DNA of 9,431 nucleotides from a virus (Duplodnaviria > Heunggongvirae > Uroviricota > Caudoviricetes): IMG/VR virus record IMGVR_UViG_2778261165_000011, positions 1 through 9,431 of that record. The stretch is one strand, 5' to 3'. A program made the position numbers and the translations under genes. Position 1 is the stretch's first letter. Each line of letters starts with the position of its first letter. Positions 1 to 9,431 of this stretch are shown here, in pieces. The notes under the pieces were generated by a model. That model worked only from the letters and a program-made list of their open reading frames with translations. It was not told the origin of the DNA and searched no databases.

Positions 1-232
1 GCTTGCGGGCGTTCATGCTCAGAAACAAGGTTGGGACAAGCACTTCCAGGCTAACACAGTCAGAAATCGAAACGTACTCTCAACAGTTCGCTTAGGCATG
101 GAAGTTTTGCGGCATTCTGGCTACACAATAACAAGGGAAGACTCACTCGTGGCTGCAACCCTGCTTACTCAAAATCTATTCACACATGGTTACGTTTTGG
201 GGAAATTATGAGGGGATCTCTCAGCGCTAAAC

Positions 233-763
233 ATGAAAAAAGATTCGTATCCTTATTTGATTTGCATGACAGTTTCAGGCCTGATCTTTATTTTCCTTTT
301 CTTCTGGTGGCGGGCAGATATTTACAGGGTCACGTTTCTTAATCAGAGTATATCCCACTATTACATTCTGTTTAGCATGGGAATAGCTTTTCTGTTATCT
401 CTGTTTTGGGTTAAGAAGGGGATAGTAAAACAAAGCGGCTGGAAGAGTCTGTCAGCATACCTTAAGGTTTATGCAGGGATGTGCATATTTGCTGGATTTT
501 TTCTGATTATACCCCTTACAACACTAACTTATTTTTTGCCTGGAGAGACATCGTCTTATGTTGCACCGTATCGGTATACTTCCGGTAGTTCAAAAAGTTG
601 TTCTGGAGCTGAGGTGGATGACCCCGATCTACATGAGAATATTCGCATTTGCTATCCGTATGGCAATTATGAGTACGATAATATTATCTATGTTGAAAAG
701 AAAATTAATACATTAGGTGCGGTAGTAACATATGCACAGACCGCGCGTGATGATACTGAATGA
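233..763 (+). CDS. Hypothetical integral membrane protein: three predicted N-terminal TM helices plus a ~70-aa Cys-containing soluble tail
   Basis: 176-aa ORF in AT-rich DNA, on the opposite strand to the surrounding leftward operon. Hydrophobic stretches PYLICMTVSGLIFIFLFFWW, YYILFSMGIAFLLSLFWV and VYAGMCIFAGFFLIIPLTTLTYFL. Followed by a hairpin at 798-821. No strong Shine-Dalgarno before the ATG, which lowers confidence. No lambda counterpart recalled. Confidence 0.45.
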   Translation: MKKDSYPYLICMTVSGLIFIFLFFWWRADIYRVTFLNQSISHYYILFSMGIAFLLSLFWVKKGIVKQSGWKSLSAYLKVYAGMCIFAGFFLIIPLTTLTYFLPGETSSYVAPYRYTSGSSKSCSGAEVDDPDLHENIRICYPYGNYEYDNIIYVEKKINTLGAVVTYAQTARDDTE

Positions 764-797
764 GATAGTATATAGCGGGCAAGTTTTAGTTAATTTA

Positions 798-835
798 TCG
801 AGGTAATATAATTTACCTCGACTCGTTTATTCTGG
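798..835 (+). terminator. Candidate intrinsic terminator after the 233-763 gene
   Basis: 9-bp inverted repeat tcgaggtaa (798-806) / ttacctcga (813-821) with a 6-nt loop, followed by T-rich ctcgtttattctgg. Confidence 0.4.
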
Positions 836-973
836 TATTAATATTTCGCTTTACGATCGATTTTTATCTGATGATATCATGCGGTTTTCATATACTGACT
901 TACTGTCTTTTCTCCGTTAGCGATTTTCTCCTGCTCAGCGATGATTTTATCTTTGGCTTCTAGTTAATTTCGC

Positions 974-1195
974 TCACTTCGAACCTCTCTGTTTACTGAT
1001 AAGCTCCAGATCCTCCTGGCAACTTGCACAAGTCCGACAACCCTGAACGACCAGGCGTCTTCGTTCATCTATCGGATCGCCACACTCACAACAATGAGTG
1101 GCAGATATAGCCTGGTGGTTCAGGCGGCGCATTTTTATTGCTGTGTTGCGCTGTAATTCTTCAATTTCTGATGCTGAATCAATGATGTCTGCCAT
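974..1195 (-). CDS. TraR/DksA-family C4 zinc-finger protein (lambda orf73-like)
   Basis: 73-aa ORF with two CxxC pairs (CCECGDPIDERRR ... CRTCASC), the signature of TraR/DksA-type zinc fingers. Size and position (left of the orf61/63/60a cluster) match lambda orf73 from memory. Confidence 0.7.
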   Translation of the reverse strand: MADIIDSASEIEELQRNTAIKMRRLNHQAISATHCCECGDPIDERRRLVVQGCRTCASCQEDLELISKQRGSK

Positions 1196-1244
1196 CTTCC
1201 ATTAATCCCTGAATTGTTGGTTAATACGCTTGAGGGTGAATGCG

Positions 1245-1271
1245 AATAATAAAAAAGGAGCCTGTAGCTCC
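1245..1271 (-). terminator. Candidate intrinsic terminator between the 1294-1605 ORF and the TraR-like ORF
   Basis: Minus-strand sense: hairpin GGAGC-uacag-GCUCC (1271 down to 1257) followed directly by UUUUUUAUUAUU (1256 down to 1245). Confidence 0.5.
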
Positions 1272-1293
1272 CTGATGATTTTGCTTTTCATGT

Positions 1294-1605
1294 TCATCGT
1301 TCCTTAAAGACGCCGTTTAACATGCCGATTGCTAGGCTTAAATGAGTCGGTGTGAATCCCATCAGCGTTACCGTTTCGCGGTGCTTCTTCAGTACGCTAC
1401 GGCAAATGTCATCGACGTTTTTATCCGGAAACTGCTGTCTGGCTTTTTTGATTTCAGAATTAGCCTGACGGGCAATGCTGCGAAGGGCGTTTTCCTGCTG
1501 AGGTGTCACTGAACAAGTCCCATGTCGGCAAGCATAAGCACACAGAATATGAAGCCCGCTGCCAGAAAAATGCATTCCGTGGTTGTCATACCTGGTCTCT
1601 CTCAT
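1294..1605 (-). CDS. Hypothetical protein at the position of lambda orf61
   Basis: 103-aa ORF whose start overlaps the end of the orf63-like ORF by 20 nt, the arrangement recalled for lambda orf61/orf63. It is longer than the 61 aa expected from lambda. Confidence 0.45.
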   Translation of the reverse strand: MRETRYDNHGMHFSGSGLHILCAYACRHGTCSVTPQQENALRSIARQANSEIKKARQQFPDKNVDDICRSVLKKHRETVTLMGFTPTHLSLAIGMLNGVFKER

Positions 1606-1777
1606 CTGCTTCTGCTTTCGCCACCATCATTTCCAGCTTTTGTGAAAGGGATGCGGCTAACGTATGAAATTCTTCGTCTGTTTCTACTGGTATTGGCACA
1701 AACCTGACTCCAATTTGAGCGAGGCTATGTGCCATCTCGATACTCGTTCTTAACTCAACGGGAGATGCTTTGTGCAT
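1586..1777 (-). CDS. Small early protein, lambda orf63-like
   Basis: 63-aa ORF at the position and length expected for lambda orf63 relative to exo; overlaps both neighbours as in lambda. Confidence 0.5.
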   Translation of the reverse strand: MHKASPVELRTSIEMAHSLAQIGVRFVPIPVETDEEFHTLAASLSQKLEMMVAKAEADERDQV

Positions 1778-1938
1778 ACAGCTCCCCGTTTATTATTTAT
1801 CTCCTCAGCCAGCCGCTGTGCTTTCAGGGGATTTCGGATAACAGAAAGGCCGGGAAATACCCAGCCTCGCTTCGTAACGGAGTAGACGAAAGTGATCGTG
1901 CCTACGCGGATATTATCGTGAGGATGTTTCATCGCCAT
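1750..1938 (-). CDS. Small early protein, lambda orf60a-like
   Basis: 62-aa ORF immediately downstream of exo on the minus strand. Using the third codon (M at 1932) gives the 60-aa form with an ATGA-type overlap with the exo stop. Confidence 0.45.
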
Positions 1939-2609
1939 TGCTCCCCAAATACAAAACCAATTTCAGCCAGTGCCTCGTCCATTTTTTCGATGAACTCCGG
2001 CACCATCTCGTCAAAACTCGCTATATACTTTTCATTCCGCTCAATCACGACATAATGCAGGCCTTCACGCTTCATACGCGGGTCATAGTTGGCAAAGTAC
2101 CAGGCATCTTTTCGCGTCACCCACATGCTGTACTGCACCTGGGCCATGTAAGCCGACTTTATGGCCTCGAAACCACCGAGCCGGAATTTCATGAAATCCC
2201 GGGAGGTAAACGGGCATTTCAGCTCAAGGCCATTGCCGTCACTGCATAAACCATCGGGAGAGCAGGCGGTGCGCATACTTTCGTCGCGATAGATGATCGG
2301 GGATTCAATAACATTTACGCCGGAAGTGAACTCAAACAGGGTTCTGGCGTCGTTCTCGTACTGTTTTCCCCAGGCCAGCGCTTTAGCGTTAACTTCCGGA
2401 GCCACACCGGTGCAAACCTCAGCCAGCAGGGTGTGGAAGTAGGACATTTTCATGTCAGGCCACTTCTTTCCTGATCGGGGCTTTGCTATCACGTTGTGAA
2501 CTTCTGAAGCGGTGATGACGCCGAGCCGTAATTTGTGCCATGCATCATCCCCCTGTTCGACAGCTCTCACGTCGATCCCGGTACGCTGCAGGATAATGTC
2601 CGGTGTCAT
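1929..2609 (-). CDS. exo: Lambda exonuclease (Red alpha), 5'-3' dsDNA exonuclease
   Basis: 226-aa ORF, near-identical over its full length to recalled lambda Exo ([65 protein letters not shown]... FVFGEQWR). Start overlaps the bet stop. Confidence 0.95.
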
Positions 2610-3391
2610 GCTGCCACCTTCTGCTCAGTGGCTTTCTGTTTCAGGAATCCAAGAGCTTTCACTGCTTCGGCCTGTGTCAGTTCTGACGATGCGCGAATGT
2701 CGCGGCGAAATATCTGGGAACAGAGCGGCAATAAGTCGTCATCCCATGTTTTATCCAGGGCGATCAGCAGAGTGTTAATCTCCTGCATGGTTTCATCGTT
2801 AACCGGAGTGATGTCGCGTTCCGGCTGACGTTCTGCAGTGTATGCAGTATTTTCGACAATGCGCTCGGCTTCATCCTTGTCATAGATACCAGCAAATCCG
2901 AAGGCCAGACGGGCACACTGAATCATGGCTTTATGCCGTAACATCCGTTTGGGATGCGACTGCCACGGTCCGGTGATTTCTCTGCCTTCGCGGGTTTTGA
3001 ATGGTTCGCGGCGGCATTCATCCATCCACTCGGTAACGCAGATCGGATGATTACGGTCCTTGCGGTAAATCCGGCATGTACAGGATTCATTGTCCTGCTC
3101 AAAGTCCATGCCATCAAACTGCTGGTTTTCATTGATGATGCGGGACCAGCCATCAACGCCCACCACCGGAACGATGCCATTCTGCTTATCAGGAAAGGCG
3201 TAAATTTCTTTCGTCCACGGATTAAGGCCGTACTGGTTGGCAACGATCAGTAATGCGATGAACTGCGCATCGCTGGCATCACCTTTAAATGCCGTCTGGC
3301 GAAGAGTGGTGATCAGTTCCTGTGGGTCGACAGAATCCATGCCGACACGTTCAGCCAGCTTCCCAGCCAGCGTTGCGAGTGCTGTACTCAT
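2606..3391 (-). CDS. bet: Red beta single-strand annealing protein
   Basis: 261-aa ORF matching recalled lambda Bet ([86 protein letters not shown]...). Confidence 0.95.
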
Positions 3392-3396
3392 CCGTT

Positions 3397-3693
3397 TTAT
3401 ACCTCTGAATCAATATCAACCTGGTGGTGAGCAATGGTTTCAACCATGTACCGGATGTGTTCTGCCATGCGCTCCTGAAACTCAACATCGTCATCAAACG
3501 CACGGGTAATGGCTTTTTTGCTGGCCCCGTGGCGTTGCAAATGATCGATGCATAGCGATTCAAACAGGTGCTGGGGCAGGCCTTTTTCCATGTCGTCTGC
3601 CAGTTCTGCCTCTTTCTCTTCACGGGCGATCTGCTGGTAGTGACGCGCCCAGCTCTGAGCCTCAAGACGATCCTGAATGTAATAAGCGTTCAT
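3397..3693 (-). CDS. gam: Gam, RecBCD inhibitor (98-aa GamS form)
   Basis: 98-aa ORF matching recalled lambda GamS ([21 protein letters not shown]...[10 protein letters not shown]). The longer GamL frame is not intact here (see findings). Confidence 0.9.
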
Positions 3694-3768
3694 GGCTGAA
3701 CTCCTGAAAATGGCTGTGAAAATATCGCCCGCGAAATGCCAGGCTGATTAGGAAAACAGGAAAGGGGG

Positions 3769-3912
3769 TTAGTGAATGCTTTTGCTTGATCTCAGTTTCT
3801 GTATTAATATCCATTTTTTATAAGCGTCGACGGCCTCACGAAACATCTTTTCATCGCCAATAAAAGTGGCGATAGTGAATTTAGTCTGGATAGCCATAAT
3901 TGTTTGATCCAT
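3769..3912 (-). CDS. kil: Kil, host cell-division inhibitor
   Basis: 47-aa ORF from the ATG at 3912 ([47 protein letters not shown]), matching recalled lambda Kil. The 89-aa ORF in the supplied track is an upstream in-frame extension through cIII. Confidence 0.8.
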
Positions 3913-4045
3913 TTTTCGGGACTCCTGGCTGATTAAGTATGTCGATAAGGCGTTTCCATCCGTCACGTAATTTACGGGGGATTCGTTCAAGTAAAGATTC
4001 GGAAGGGCAGCCAGCAACAGGCCACCCTGCAATGGCATATTGCAT
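3881..4045 (-). CDS. cIII: cIII, inhibitor of FtsH-mediated cII degradation
   Basis: Hand translation of the minus strand from the ATG at 4045 gives MQYAIAGWPVAGCPSESLLERIPRKLRDG..., ending ...YGYPD* at 3881; 54 aa, matching recalled lambda cIII. Below the size cut-off of the supplied ORF track. Confidence 0.8.
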   Translation of the reverse strand: MQYAIAGWPVAGCPSESLLERIPRKLRDGWKRLIDILNQPGVPKNGSNNYGYPD

Positions 4046-4117
4046 GGTGTGCTCCTTATTTATACATAACGAAAAACGCCTCGAGTGAAGCGTAATTGGT
4101 ATGCGGTAACGCCGCGC

Positions 4118-4486
4118 TCAGGCGGCTTTGATAGTCATATCATCTGGATCAAATATTCCTGATGTATCGATATCGGTAATTCTTATTCCTTCGCTACCAT
4201 CCATTGGAGGCCATCCTTCCTGACCATTTCCATCATTCCAGTCGAACTCACACACAACACCATATGCATTTAAGTCGCTTGAAATTGCTATAAGCAGAGC
4301 ATGTTGCGCCAGCATGATTAATACAGCATTTAATACAGAGCCGTGTTTATTGAGTCGGTATTCAGAGTCTGACCAGAAATTATTAATCTGGTGAAGTTTT
4401 TCCTCTGTCATTACGTCATGGTCGATTTCAATTTCTATTGATGCTTTCCAGTCGTAATTAATGATGTATTTTTTGATGTTTGACAT
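4118..4486 (-). CDS. ea10: Ea10-like early protein
   Basis: 122-aa ORF at exactly the position and length of lambda ea10 relative to cIII/kil/gam/bet/exo. GAGGA Shine-Dalgarno upstream. Confidence 0.7.
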   Translation of the reverse strand: MSNIKKYIINYDWKASIEIEIDHDVMTEEKLHQINNFWSDSEYRLNKHGSVLNAVLIMLAQHALLIAISSDLNAYGVVCEFDWNDGNGQEGWPPMDGSEGIRITDIDTSGIFDPDDMTIKAA

Positions 4487-4503
4487 CTATTCATATCCTC
4501 ACA

Positions 4504-4532
4504 GATAAAAAATCGCCCTCACACTGGAGGGC
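4504..4532 (-). terminator. Intrinsic terminator upstream of ea10 (tL2-like)
   Basis: Minus-strand sense: stem GCCCUC-cagugu-GAGGGC (4532 down to 4515) followed by GAUUUUUUAU (4514 down to 4505). Position corresponds to the lambda tL2 region. Confidence 0.5.
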
Positions 4533-4668
4533 AAAGAAGATTTCCAATAATCAGAACAAGTCGGCTCCTGTTTAGTTACGAGCGACATTGCTCCGTGTAT
4601 TCACTCGTTGGAATGAATACACAGTGCAGTGTTTATTCTGTTATTTATGCCAAAAATAAAGGCCACTA

Positions 4669-4766
4669 TCAGGCAGCTTTGTTGTTCTGTTTACCAAGTT
4701 CTCTGACAATCATTGCCGTCGTTCGTATTGCCCACACCATTGATTCTTATCAATAGTCGCAGTCAT
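4669..4766 (-). pseudogene. ral: ral (restriction alleviation) remnant with internal frameshifting deletion
   Basis: From the ATG at 4766 the frame reads MTATIDKNQWCGQ then YERRQ*. A different frame reads (M)VWAIRTTAMIVRELGKQNNKAA* ending at 4669. These match the N- and C-termini of recalled lambda Ral (66 aa); ATG-to-stop is only 98 nt. Confidence 0.6.
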
Positions 4767-4836
4767 ACGGATAGTCCTGGTATTGTTCCATCACATCCTG
4801 AGGATGCTCTTCGAACTCTTCAAATTCTTCTTCCAT
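4750..4836 (-). CDS. 28-aa acidic peptide (lambda orf28-like)
   Basis: ATG at 4836 preceded by GAGGTGA Shine-Dalgarno; encodes MEEEFEEFEEHPQDVMEQYQDYPYDCDY*. Its 3' end overlaps the ral ATG, the same arrangement as lambda orf28/ral. Confidence 0.4.
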   Translation of the reverse strand: MEEEFEEFEEHPQDVMEQYQDYPYDCDY

Positions 4837-4894
4837 ATCTCACCTCAAATAAGTGGTTTGCTGCCTAATTTCATTTTCTGGCGACCAACACAAG

Positions 4895-5167
4895 TCATCT
4901 TGCTGTCAGCTGTTTGGATTTCCTGTAGCCTGCCGCGTAAATGGCTACATTTGGAAGACAAGTTGAGCCTTCATATTTTCTGGTCAACGTTGTCAGTGTT
5001 ATTACTTCTGCTCTCATTACTGGTTTGCGTTTGCATTGTAAGACCACTCGTGAAGGGGTTGGCCTGTGTAGTTTGTCAGAGCTGATCGCCTCCTGACTTT
5101 GCAGGTTTGCACGACGAGCTCTACGGCGAGAAGCTGCGGTGCCTTTAAATTCTGTTTTTCTGGACAT
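4895..5167 (-). CDS. N: N-like transcription antiterminator (non-lambda type)
   Basis: 90 aa from the internal ATG at 5167, preceded by GGAGG at ~6-nt spacing. N-terminal arginine-rich motif MSRKTEFKGTAASRRRARRANLQ. First gene downstream of the predicted PL and nutL. The supplied 114-aa ORF is an N-terminal over-extension. Confidence 0.65.
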   Translation of the reverse strand: MSRKTEFKGTAASRRRARRANLQSQEAISSDKLHRPTPSRVVLQCKRKPVMRAEVITLTTLTRKYEGSTCLPNVAIYAAGYRKSKQLTAR

Positions 5168-5265
5168 AGATTCCTCCCGAATAAACTTTGGCGATGCAAT
5201 CTCGAAGCTCCTCCTGAGCCGGTTGCTTCGGCATTGCATCCCACAGCTTATGTGGTTGGGTGGTC

Positions 5266-5311
5266 TGGCTTTTCAGCCACGTAGTCGAGTGTTCGACGTT
5301 GTTTAAAGAGC
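5266..5311 (-). promoter_or_regulatory. nutL candidate (boxA-like plus boxB-like hairpin)
   Basis: Minus-strand sense: GGCUCUUUAAA (boxA-like, 5311-5301), then hairpin GUCGA-acac-UCGAC, then UGGC-UGAAAA-GCCA (5279-5266). The last element parallels the hairpin in nutR. Confidence 0.5.
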
Positions 5312-5349
5312 CTGCCAGTCTGTTCCATTTGGCTTCCAGCGTCCTGCTG

Positions 5350-5386
5350 ATGATTAAATAGTACGATATGTACTTTATCTGGTCAA
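5350..5386 (-). promoter_or_regulatory. PL candidate promoter
   Basis: Minus-strand TTGACC (-35, 5386-5381), 17-nt spacer, TACTAT (-10, 5363-5358); about 40 nt upstream of nutL. Confidence 0.5.
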
Positions 5387-5570
5387 TACGATTTGTTCTA
5401 TTGAGGGGTGGTTTTTTACAACGCTTTGTATTTAATAGTGTTGTTTTTTAGCGTGGGTGTATTGCCTCGGCGATGTAGGGAGAGATCAGAATTGCGTTGT
5501 TTAGTGAGTTGTATCTATTAATTTTAAAATAAATACAATTGGTTATGTGTTTTTTTGGGGGCGTTAGGCA

Positions 5571-5595
5571 AAGAAAACCCGGCGCGGAAGCCGGG
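5571..5595 (-). terminator. Intrinsic terminator ending the cI-side leftward operon
   Basis: Stem cccggc (5578-5583) / gccggg (5590-5595) with loop gcggaa. On the minus strand the hairpin is followed by UUUUCUUU; it lies 5 nt after the stop of the 177-aa ORF. A T-run on the plus side (5606-5611) suggests weak bidirectional activity. Confidence 0.6.
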
Positions 5596-5600
5596 TTGTC

Positions 5601-6134
5601 TCATTTTTTAGTTTGCTTTGGATTCGGTTTGTCTCTTCTTCCAATTATAAACACGCTAGTTAAAGCAACTAACTCAGCACCAAGAAGCCCGGTAGCCCAG
5701 CCATAAGCCTCGTGCTGAATCATCTTGTAAGCAATTCCTGCGAAAACAAAGACAGAAGTCATCGCAAAGATCTGTCCGAGTCGATCTCGCCAAATTGCTC
5801 CCCTCTGTCCTGCTTTGTAATACTCGTGTCTGTGTTTTTGCTCAGCCTTAGCCATGTCCATTATTTCGCGAGCGAATCCTGGAGATATTCTTTCGTACTT
5901 AGCTAATTCGTCAGCGTCTGGGAGTGGCCCTGATCTAGTGTGAGTCACCTGCATCATGATGCCAGCTAGATCTGGCCTGTCCATGAGGCGCTCAAGAACT
6001 TGAGGGTTCTTTGCGACCTCATTTATAAGCAGTTCGGTTTTACCGTCTTGAACTCGCCCTAACGGAGTTGGTTGGTTAACAAGATTTCTCGGGGCGGCGG
6101 TTTGAAGCTTTCTTTGGGATTTTTTTCTGCTCAT
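5601..6134 (-). CDS. Hypothetical membrane protein with two C-terminal TM helices, at the position of lambda rex
   Basis: 177-aa ORF: basic N-terminus (MSRKKSQRKLQTAAPR), charged central region (ELAKYERISPGFAREIMDMAKAEQKHRHEYYKAGQ), then IFAMTSVFVFAGIAYKMI and WATGLLGAELVALTSVFIIG. No similarity to recalled RexA or RexB. Weak Shine-Dalgarno; possibly translationally coupled. Confidence 0.55.
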   Translation of the reverse strand: MSRKKSQRKLQTAAPRNLVNQPTPLGRVQDGKTELLINEVAKNPQVLERLMDRPDLAGIMMQVTHTRSGPLPDADELAKYERISPGFAREIMDMAKAEQKHRHEYYKAGQRGAIWRDRLGQIFAMTSVFVFAGIAYKMIQHEAYGWATGLLGAELVALTSVFIIGRRDKPNPKQTKK

Positions 6135-6297
6135 TATCAGTTACAGCGTCTCTAACGTAACTACCTACCTTAACCCAATCTGAGTTGATAAGGTCGATGT
6201 CTGTAGCATTTGAATGATACTCGCTGTAGCTACCTGCTGGGCAAAGGTCAAGGATAGAGCCCATAGCGCTGAAAAAGTGCTTTGCAGATTTTTTCAT
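6076..6297 (-). CDS. Hypothetical 73-aa soluble protein, first gene of the cassette downstream of cI
   Basis: ATG at 6297 preceded by AGGA about 8 nt upstream; MKKSAKHFFSAMGSILDLCPAGSYSEYHSNATDIDLINSDWVKVGSYVRDAVTDNEQKKIPKKASNRRPEKSC. Its 3' end overlaps the 177-aa ORF start by 59 nt in another frame. Confidence 0.4.
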   Translation of the reverse strand: MKKSAKHFFSAMGSILDLCPAGSYSEYHSNATDIDLINSDWVKVGSYVRDAVTDNEQKKIPKKASNRRPEKSC

Positions 6298-6485
6298 GTG
6301 GGGTGTCCTATATGTTGTTTACTCTAATTTGAGTAATTGAAGTTTACGCAAAACCTAGCTTTCAGCAAGCAATACAGCACAAAAAAATCATGTAAATTTG
6401 CGTCTATTTTTATCTAACGGAAAAATGCTCAACAACTTTAGAGAAAAAATAGCAATACCAAATCAAACCAATTGCTGCTTCGCCT

Positions 6486-7145
6486 CTACCCAAACGTCTC
6501 TTCAGGCCACTGACTAGCGATAACTTTCCCCACAACGGAACAACTCTCATTGCATGGGATCATTGGGTATTGTGGGTTTAGTGGCTGTAGAAACACCTGA
6601 CCGCTATCCCTGATCAGTTTCTTGAAGGTAAACTCATCACCACCAAGTCTGGCTATGCAGAAATCGCCGGGCTCAACAGCTTGCTCTGGGTCAACCAGAA
6701 TTAACATCCCGTCAGGAAAACTAGGTTTGGAACCTGTTGGTGCGGTCATTGAGTTACCTTCAACCTCAAGCCAGAATGCAGAGTCACTGGCTTTTTTGGT
6801 TGTGCTTACCAATCTCTCCGCATCGCCTTTGGTAAAGGTTCTGAGTTCTGGAGAGAACATCCCAGCCTGAACATGAGAAAAAACAGGGTACTCATATTGT
6901 TTTTTAACTGGGGCCGATGAGTATTCGCCAACAGGTGAAAATGTCCCGTCGTGGTTGAATGATATGTTATCAATACCAAGGTATTTAAACACCACACCAA
7001 TATCACTAAGAGATGGATGACGAGATCCGCGCAACCAGTGTCCAATTCCACCCTGCGTCATACCTAGCTCTTCGGCTAACTTCTCTTGAGTTATGCCGAG
7101 CTCTTTCATTCTGGATCTAGCCAGTTCATACCATTTCATTTTCAT
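6486..7145 (-). CDS. cI: cI-family prophage repressor: non-lambda HTH N-terminal domain fused to a lambda-type S24 autocleavage C-terminal domain
   Basis: C-terminal ~135 aa ([29 protein letters not shown]...[12 protein letters not shown]) nearly identical to recalled lambda cI. N-terminus ([40 protein letters not shown]...) is a different HTH. Start placed at ATG 7145 (or 7139); the 256-aa track ORF over-extends into the operator region. Confidence 0.9.
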
Positions 7146-7256
7146 GTCCTTATTATTACGCTCTGTACTGGAACCATCCATGCACAATGTGTATTTTTTG
7201 CTTGTGTTTAATGAGTACATATTGTATTTTTTATTTGTGGTTACTATGGAGGGCAT
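7146..7256. promoter_or_regulatory. OR region with divergent PRM/PR promoters and candidate operators
   Basis: 111-bp gap between divergent cI and cro. Contains two ~20-bp direct repeats, aatgtgtattttttgcttgtg (~7186-7206) and tattgtattttttatttgtgg (~7220-7240), plus TACTAT and a GGAGGG Shine-Dalgarno just before the cro ATG. Exact operator boundaries not resolved. Confidence 0.5.
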
Positions 7257-7472
7257 ATGAGCAACCTACGAAAATATCGAGAGTCACTGAATATCTCTCA
7301 AACAACACTTGCTAAGGCAGTTGGATGCACACAGGGAGCTATCGGACATTGGGAATCTGGTCGTCGCTTCCCAGACCTTAAAACATGCCGTGCTCTTGTT
7401 GCGTGTCTAAACAAGTTAGGCGCAAAAGTAAGTCTTGATGATGTGTTCCCGCCGGAGCACAAAGCTGCTTAA
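7257..7472 (+). CDS. cro: Cro-like HTH repressor
   Basis: 71-aa ORF divergent from cI with GGAGGG Shine-Dalgarno; [28 protein letters not shown]. Recognition-helix motif TQG.IGHW is shared with the cI N-terminal domain. Confidence 0.8.
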
Positions 7473-7482
7473 TAAGCGGAGC

Positions 7483-7528
7483 CGCTCTTTGTAATAACGG
7501 ACATTCGTCCTACGTCGCTGAAAAGCGA
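7483..7528 (+). promoter_or_regulatory. nutR candidate (boxA plus boxB-like hairpin)
   Basis: CGCTCTTTG (7483-7491, boxA consensus), then hairpin GGAC-attc-GTCC, then TCGC-TGAAAA-GCGA (7515-7528). Located between cro and cII as in lambda. Confidence 0.5.
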
Positions 7529-7613
7529 GTCCCAAGATATCTGACCAACTAAGGCCATATGCGTTTCCACGCATACCTTTCAACTAACTATTCACTATTG
7601 GAAATCTTAAGAA

Positions 7614-7910
7614 ATGGAACGAACAAGTTACAGCAAACTATCACAGCGTGACGTTGATCGCGCAGAAACAGATTTACTCATCAACCTATCAACGCTTACC
7701 CAGCGCGGTCTGGCAAAGATGATTGGCTGTCATGAATCGAAGATAAGCAGAACGGACTGGAGATTTATTGCTTCGGTCTTGTGTGCTTTCGGAATGGCAT
7801 CAGACATCAGTCCGATTAGCAGGGCTTTTAAGTATGCGCTTGCTGAAATCACAAAGAAAAAATCCCCGGCCGCCACCGAGGATTTTAAGCAAATTGATAT
7901 GCAATTCTGA
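7614..7910 (+). CDS. cII: cII transcriptional activator
   Basis: 98-aa ORF. C-terminal part (...ITKKKSPAATEDFKQIDMQF) resembles recalled lambda cII (...TNKKRPAATERSEQIQMEF). Positioned between cro and O, overlapped by the oop terminator. Confidence 0.8.
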   Translation: MERTSYSKLSQRDVDRAETDLLINLSTLTQRGLAKMIGCHESKISRTDWRFIASVLCAFGMASDISPISRAFKYALAEITKKKSPAATEDFKQIDMQF

Positions 7911-7932
7911 GGGAATTACTGGATCAATCTAC
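7857..7932 (-). ncRNA. oop: oop antisense RNA
   Basis: Minus-strand sense begins GUAGAUUGAUCCAGUAAUUCCCUCAGAA, close to recalled lambda oop 5' end GUUGAUAGAUCCAGUAAUGACCUCAGAA. Ends in hairpin CCUCGG-uggcgg-CCGGGG followed by AUUUUUU, overlapping the cII 3' end. Confidence 0.55.
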
Positions 7933-7942
7933 AGGGGGCATT

Positions 7943-8838
7943 ATGACAAATACAGCCAAAATACTCAACTTCTGCAGAGGTAACTTTGCCAAACAGGAGC
8001 GTAATGTGGCAGATCTCGATGATGGTTACGCCAGACTATCAAATATGCTGCTTGAGGCTTATTCAGGCGCAGATCTGACCAAGCGACAGTTTAAAGTGCT
8101 GCTTGCCATTCTGCGTAAAACCTATGGGTGGAATAAACCAATGGACAGAATCACCGATTCTCAACTTAGCGAGATTACAAAGTTACCTGTCAAACGGTGC
8201 AATGAAGCCAAGTTAGAACTCGTCAGAATGAATATTATCAAGCAGCAAGGCGGCATGTTTGGACCAAATAAAAACATCTCAGAATGGTGTATCCCTCAAA
8301 ACGAGGGAAAATCCCCTAAAACGAGGGATAAAACATCCCTCAAATTGGGGGATTGCTATCCCTCAAAACAGGGGGACACAAAAGACACTATTACAAAAGA
8401 AAAAAGAAAAGATTATTCGTCAGAGAATTCTGGCGAATCCTCTGACCAGCCAGAAAACGACCTTTCTGCGGTGAAACCGGATGCTGCAATTCAGAGCGGC
8501 AGCAAGTGGGGGACAGCAGAAGACCTGACCGCCGCAGAGTGGATGTTTGACATGGTGAAGACTATCGCACCATCAGCCAGAAAACCGAATTTTGCTGGGT
8601 GGGCTAACGATATCCGCCTGATGCGTGAACGTGACGGACGTAACCACCGCGATATGTGTGTGCTGTTCCGCTGGGCCTGCCAGGACAACTTCTGGTCCGG
8701 TAATGTGCTGAGCCCGGCCAAACTCCGCGACAAGTGGACCCAGCTCGAAATCAACCGTAACAAGCAACAGGCAGTCGTGACAGCCAGCAAACCAAAACTC
8801 GACCTGACAAACACAGACTGGATTTACGGGGTGGATTT

Positions 8839-8842
<4 letters not shown>
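7943..8842 (+). CDS. O: Replication initiator O
   Basis: 299-aa ORF near-identical to recalled lambda O (MTNTAKILNF...NTDWIYGVDL); contains the iteron origin internally. Confidence 0.95.
8291..8420. repeat. ori-lambda: four ~18-bp iterons plus adjacent AT-rich region
   Basis: tccctcaaaacgaggga (8292-8308), tcccctaaaacgaggga (8312-8328), tccctcaaattggggga (8337-8353), tccctcaaaacaggggga (8359-8376), then acaaaagacactattacaaaagaaaaaagaaaagattatt. Confidence 0.85.
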
Positions 8843-9425
<583 letters not shown>

Positions 9426-9431
9426 TAGCTT

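Follow-up and report, generated by a model that had tools for sequence, protein, structure and literature searches.

The locus considered here raises the question of how a lambdoid prophage came to hold, in the place of the antirestriction gene ral, two pieces of that gene lying in different reading frames, and whether this happened once or many times. The window, i.e. the whole stretch of 9,431 nt that was analysed (IMG/VR record IMGVR_UViG_2778261165_000011, positions 1 to 9,431), is the early-left, immunity and replication region of such a prophage. Ral alleviates restriction by type IA systems (EcoKI and EcoBI) and boosts modification, as shown by Zabeau 1980 and Loenen & Murray 1986 (both cited in PMC12707154).

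Genes on the minus strand of the window are exo (1929-2609), bet (2606-3391), gam (3397-3693), kil and cIII (about 3881-4045), ea10 (4118-4486, a DUF2528 gene), the orf28 homologue (4750-4836), the antiterminator gene N (4895-5167), a DUF2335 gene (5601-6134) and the gene for a LexA-like repressor (6486-7256). On the plus strand are cro (7257-7472), cII (7614-7910), O (7943-8842) and a truncated P (8839-9327). The order ea10, ral, orf28, N is common to the window, lambda and phage 21, with the window, which has no sieB, being closer to phage 21. Upstream in the pL operon, N is intact (a CDS of 273 nt, matching Pfam N_peptide, PF25694, with E=2e-32) and is presumably of the 933W type. The intact orf28 homologue encodes 28 aa (MEEEFEEFEEHPQDVMEQYQDYPYDCDY) and overlaps the start of ral by 17 nt, as in lambda, and the intact downstream neighbour, ea10, is separated from the ral remnant by a terminator-like stem-loop (4513-4534, minus strand) that is conserved in phage 21, whose annotation includes a terminator at this place. 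The genes orf28, N and ea10 and the hairpin are all untouched by the change in ral described below, and we would expect no polar effect on the neighbouring genes. The orf28 product is very acidic, and one of the base changes in ral, A7G, gives Y26C in it. Just past the N stop codon, positions 4845-4900 of the minus strand hold the 3′-terminal ~55 nt of an N gene of phage 21 type, ending in ...CVGRQKMKLGSKPLI-stop and near-identical to the corresponding sequence in phage 21 and phage E212. The 3′ end of N thus reads as a mosaic recombination joint, and this leftover tail explains a spurious 38 aa ORF at 4845-4961.

The ral remnant occupies 98 nt of the minus strand (4669-4766), and translations and alignments agree on how it is composed. 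The original prediction held that the start codon and the first 13 codons of ral are present, that the frame stops after 18 codons, that the C-terminus lies in another frame with 98 nt from the ATG to its stop, and that ~103 nt are missing relative to the 66 aa (201 nt) lambda gene, and all of this was borne out. Translation from 4766 gives MTATIDKNQWCGQYERRQ*, in which 13 Ral-like codons form part of an 18-codon ORF that ends at a premature TGA (4710-4712), codon 19 of the shifted frame, while the frame that begins two bases further on, at 4764, ends in ...WAIRTTAMIVRELGKQNNKAA*, with its stop codon at 4669-4671. In lambda and in phage 21 the intact gene is 201 nt long and encodes the same 66 aa protein, and base-by-base comparison with these two genes showed that exactly 103 nt, corresponding to nt 36-138 of lambda ral, are missing from the window. 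As 103 is not divisible by three, the frame opened by the ral ATG closes after 18 codons and no longer includes the final 21 codons of the gene.

Two parts of the gene are therefore retained, ral nt 1-35 (4732-4766; the ATG, codons 1-11 and the start of codon 12) being joined directly to nt 139-201 (4669-4731; codons 47-66 and the original TGA at 4669-4671). The 98 nt that remain are ~97 % identical to lambda ral (lambdap46, NP_040622; Pfam PF11058), which has the same locus, the same start and stop codons and the same sequence downstream. The 5′ part differs at nt 7 (A to G, giving T3A) and nt 21 (A to G, silent) and the 3′ part at nt 164 (C to T, giving A55V in the old frame). In a four-way DNA alignment of the window, lambda, phage 21 and phage E212, the loss appeared as a single clean gap of 103 nt with no further indel, and the sequence around the gap, starting upstream of orf28 and continuing into the region beyond ral, was collinear with that of lambda and phage 21 at ~97 % identity. 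When the N- and C-terminal pieces were joined they matched the Ral profile PF11058 (E=1e-14; score 54 bits, cut-off 25). By this score and by the shared gene order, the resemblance lies far beyond chance. The C-terminal piece covers profile positions 45-66, and positions ~14-44 are missing. We consider it very probable that 4669-4766 is a remnant of a lambda-type ral without function, left by loss of a repeat-flanked 103 nt segment, with the repeat pair most likely a recurrent hot spot for this loss. None of the observations speaks against a pseudogene, and the caveats given below bear on mechanism and recurrence.

The remnant is not a new annotation, as an identical 98 nt in an E. coli genome (WHU49_RS17075 in NZ_CP148483.1) already carries the PGAP label 'antirestriction Ral family protein, frameshifted', and in another genome the remnant is labelled partial Ral. 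The surroundings of WHU49_RS17075 are likewise identical over window positions 932-9399, the context differing only in the positions of IS elements. The 103 nt deletion is undescribed in the limited collection of full-text literature that was searched, which yielded general reviews on Ral and type I restriction-modification. The pseudogene having been flagged already by RefSeq/PGAP, the apparent recurrence of the 103 nt loss is the sole mildly new point.

In order to count deleted alleles, 5,426 complete E. coli genomes were searched using junction-centred queries that are unable to seed on an intact ral. The original prediction had proposed looking for the same deletion in related prophages, and the window junction (class GAGAA, including GAGGG) was found at 48 places in 43 of these genomes, as well as in the isolated phage ECP1 (KY979108). 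A second class (AAGAA), with its crossover in CAAT, accounts for 23 places in 22 further genomes, no isolated phage with it having been found, and a third (ATAGG), with its crossover ~12 nt further 3′, was present in four genomes and in the isolated phage E212 (MZ043897). Matches to the GAGAA-type and AAGAA queries in E. coli were all chromosomal. The intact lambda-type internal 103 nt was found at 886 places in 793 genomes and in many isolated phages. Hence, the 103 nt loss affects ~8 % of the ral copies of lambda type found in complete E. coli genomes and ~1.3 % of the genomes themselves. In IMG/VR, 15 viral contigs include a ral deletion junction, out of ~400 that encode a Ral relative.

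The two isolated phages have other backbones, ECP1 being a plaque-forming member of the Hendrixvirinae and E212 a Lederbergvirus, and in this they are unlike the IS-ridden prophage in the window. Both lack the same 103 nt in the same repeat register. ECP1 also shares the junction TGGGCAAT with the window, but its flanking haplotype is another one and two additional stop codons interrupt what was the C-terminal frame, a sign of decay, while E212 differs from the window in having its crossover ~12 nt further 3′ in the repeat.

Both borders of the missing stretch fall within an imperfect direct repeat (TGGRCAATWCRARCGA), of which the 5′ copy, TGGACAATTCAAGCGA, is ral nt 33-48 and the 3′ copy, TGGGCAATACGAACGA, is nt 136-151, an offset of 103 nt. 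The copies are identical at 12-14 of 16 positions, depending on the allele. The junction TGGGCAAT was mapped by position-by-position comparison to 4727-4734 (minus strand), the coordinates first proposed for it, and is a single hybrid copy of this repeat, with no inserted or filler DNA. As the hybrid copy in the window has the bases of the 3′ copy, the crossover must have occurred in or before TGG (4732-4734). The original prediction of a deletion at a short direct repeat was upheld, with one small correction. Alignment with lambda and phage 21 confirmed both the deletion and an imperfect repeat at its borders, but in the lambda reference allele the bases shared exactly with the window junction are only TGG (3 nt), followed by an A/G mismatch and then CAAT.

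The exact 8 nt repeat TGGGCAAT occurs only in natural ral alleles with G at position 36. Among 82 intact alleles (those of the 80 best-matching viral contigs, lambda and phage 21) there are 25 DNA variants. In lambda the pair is identical at 12 of 16 positions and is the best 16 nt imperfect repeat in the whole gene, alleles with 45A have 13 of 16, and one allele with both 36G and 45A has 14 of 16, with TGGGCAAT exact over 8 nt. When the sequences were shuffled, 119 of 300 shuffles reached the 12 of 16 of the lambda allele and 1 of 300 the 14 of 16 of the 36G/45A allele, though the parental allele of the window need not have been either of these.

Deletion between short, closely spaced direct repeats that is independent of RecA, by slippage or single-strand annealing, is well established in E. 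coli genetics. The ral scar bears the classical signature of such events, in that the segment was bordered by direct repeats ~100 nt apart and one hybrid copy without filler remains, and differs in that the repeat is imperfect (12-14 of 16), with exact homology of only 3-8 nt according to the allele. An ancestral 201 nt ral lost nt 36-138, and from the scar we infer that this took place between the repeat copies by replication slippage or single-strand annealing, possibly assisted by the phage-encoded Exo and Bet, and that the remnant then persisted neutrally, ral being a dispensable accessory gene. There was no support for a hairpin that would bring the repeats together, as the lambda ral segment spanning both copies folds as single-stranded DNA with -13.3 kcal/mol, which is unexceptional among shuffled sequences (z=0.23).

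Whether the deletion arose once and then spread across lambdoid phages via homologous recombination was considered with some care, as lambdoid genomes are mosaic and the deleted allele is found in lambda-like, HK97-like (ECP1) and P22-like (E212) backbones. The three junction classes (GAGAA/GAGGG, AAGAA and ATAGG) are all in register of the repeat, so that each removes exactly 103 nt, and no more than 1-4 diagnostic bases tell them apart, a difference that could have been produced by mismatch repair, gene conversion or point mutation. However, the class represented by E212 has three to four consecutive bases of the 5′ copy where the window has those of the 3′ copy. In addition, about eight haplotypes can be distinguished among the deleted alleles at the retained positions, and when distances were computed from 330 positions, flanking or retained, that lie beyond the repeat zone, each deleted haplotype had its nearest neighbour among the intact alleles and not among the other deleted ones. 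The window allele differs at 4 positions from the nearest intact allele but at 14 or more from any other deleted haplotype, and the corresponding values are 3 and 7 for the deleted allele at locus L013, 5 and 15 for that at L019, and 8 and 111 for that at L009. Site 21, a polymorphism just 15 nt away from the junction, is found in all four combinations with the deletion, which again speaks against a single event.

A single ancestral deletion, followed by very local recombination or gene conversion, is thus rather doubtful, and the differing crossovers, together with deleted haplotypes that lie closer to intact alleles than to one another, favour several independent deletions. The repeat pair is most likely a recurrent deletion hot spot with several origins, though recombination, gene conversion or point mutation after one old deletion may account for part of the variety of junctions and haplotypes. 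The broader proposition, that ral is a natural hot spot from which the same 103 nt was removed by several independent events, with at least three crossover classes and ~8 flanking haplotypes, in lambda-, HK97- and P22-like phages, and that this loss marks ~8 % of the E. coli copies, is one that we favour, though not firmly. Recurrent loss of ral, which extends to viable phages, is of modest interest to population genetics and would illustrate the repeated shedding of anti-defence genes that act on a narrow range of targets. If annealing by the Red proteins drives the loss, or if hosts without type IA systems select against Ral, the locus would offer a small natural case of convergent loss of an anti-defence gene.

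The original prediction also held that the deletion points to relaxed selection for restriction alleviation in this particular element, and the prophage in the window is indeed degraded. Window positions 1-228 are the terminus of an IS10/ISVsa5-type element (IS4 family), 97 % identical to the element beside the same prophage in NZ_CP148483.1, and this end severs the int/xis side of the prophage, whereas in related genomes the IS lies at window position ~932. At the other side P is broken at about 9307 by IS100 (IS21 family), the last 125 nt of the window matching the IS100 that splits P in related genomes. The truncated P is 162 aa, compared to 233 aa for lambda P, and because P is interrupted this copy of the prophage is probably replication-defective. 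However, the copy of this prophage that strain 24AR0357 carries at the lambda attachment site still has intact int, xis, O and P, and its ral is already a remnant. The ral alleles of the two copies have the same junction and are near-identical, the window having one extra change, C164T. As the remnant is present in the 24AR0357 copy, and also in isolated phages, the deletion is older than, and independent of, the local decay. Hence, relaxed selection specific to this element is plausible but weakly supported.

Loss of ral is tolerated because Ral is a non-essential accessory protein that is active only on type IA restriction-modification systems (e.g. EcoKI) and not on types IB or IC (PMC12707154). 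In the 80 best of the ~400 viral contigs that encode Ral relatives, the protein is the same as lambda Ral and the DNA changes are synonymous only, a sign that those copies of ral that persist are under purifying selection. Selection on ral thus seems to be all-or-none and to depend on the host.

It might also be supposed that loss of ral is positively selected, e.g. if Ral imposes a cost in lysogens or where the host has no type IA system. The frequency of deleted copies (48 and 23 places and four genomes, compared to 886 intact places) would be in keeping with this, as would the apparently multiple origins and the persistence of the deletion in viable phages, but a mutational hot spot combined with neutrality fits the same data. 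Moreover, more than 90 % of ral copies are intact, and the invariance of the protein in the 80 best viral-contig matches is also contrary to it. We therefore consider positive selection for the loss unlikely.

The segment missing from the window encoded Ral residues 12/13-46, including C17, C20 and C26, and of the four cysteines in the pattern C11-x5-C17-x2-C20-x5-C26 of lambda Ral the window keeps only C11. These three lost cysteines are assumed to be needed for function. Active Ral is not expected to be made from the remnant. The ORF list and a Pfam profile search revealed no second intact ral within the window that could compensate, and a search for a solved Ral structure onto which the loss could be mapped yielded no PDB entry at E≤1. 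The prophage is predicted to be unable to provide Ral-type protection from restriction by the EcoKI family, which should be useful to annotators.

A different, intact small ral homologue, which the original prediction had named as the finding that would speak against it, was ruled out, as there is no intact Ral-like ORF at the locus and both flanks of the gap are collinear with, and ~97 % identical to, lambda ral. Other products that might be made here are a 'mini-Ral' arising from programmed frameshifting or a peptide from a 23-codon ORF (MVWAIRTTAMIVRELGKQNNKAA; 4669-4740, minus strand) that is created by the junction, encodes the old Ral C-terminus and, with its ATG 10 nt past the orf28 stop codon, might be coupled to that stop. 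All three junction classes lose exactly 103 nt and so keep an ATG ORF for the C-terminal 21 residues of Ral, and in most deleted alleles this ORF is still open. However, the constant 103 nt follows from the register of the repeat alone, and ECP1-type alleles have two stop codons within their counterpart of this ORF. Frame translations revealed no uninterrupted ORF of Ral length (~66 codons) at the locus, reading of the sequence between the ral ATG and the stop showed no slippery heptamer of the form X XXY YYZ, and inspection of the sequence ahead of the internal ATG showed nothing resembling a Shine-Dalgarno sequence. The loss of three of the four cysteines likewise argues against a working product. 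Taken as a whole, survival of a Ral homologue or Ral-derived product at this locus is very improbable, and given the lack of an evident ribosome-binding site and the two stops in ECP1-type alleles, the 23-codon ORF is probably not functional and is regarded as a by-product of the deletion.

As small genes at times show short indels that are mere errors of sequencing or assembly, an artefact was also considered. It is refuted by independent occurrences, the identical junction being present in ECP1, in IMG/VR contigs and in 43 complete E. coli genomes, which come from many different hosts and laboratories. Over about 8.5-9 kb, several complete E. coli genomes match the window at 100 % identity. 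The chance of an artefact can be taken as negligible.

Some database entries for the relatives call for comment. In ECP1 a gene labelled 'antirestriction protein ral' (2768-3016; locus L101) lies ~220 nt downstream of the ral remnant. Its product has no match to the Pfam Ral profile and no similarity to lambda Ral detectable by BLASTP, and the label looks to be unsupported or to have been meant for another antirestriction family. The 48,361 bp entry MW057783.1, named 'Campylobacter phage CJLB-4', matches in the ea10-ral region with the identity and layout of lambda itself, which suggests a lambda contaminant under the name of a Campylobacter phage. In a scan of representative genomes (one per species, and hence of little bearing on prevalence) the junction pattern was found in one contig only. 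This contig (JAJXBQ010000280.1, 3347-3379; 3.5 kb) has the AAGAA junction and was binned to a Segatella copri MAG, but is almost certainly mis-binned enterobacterial phage DNA. Finally, the deleted allele in IMGVR_UViG_2563366831_000011 has lost a further 6 nt close to the start of ral (ATGACTATTGAT... compared to ATGACTACGACTATTGAT...), and the position of this second loss at an ACGACT/ACT repeat is consistent with continuing decay of the remnant.
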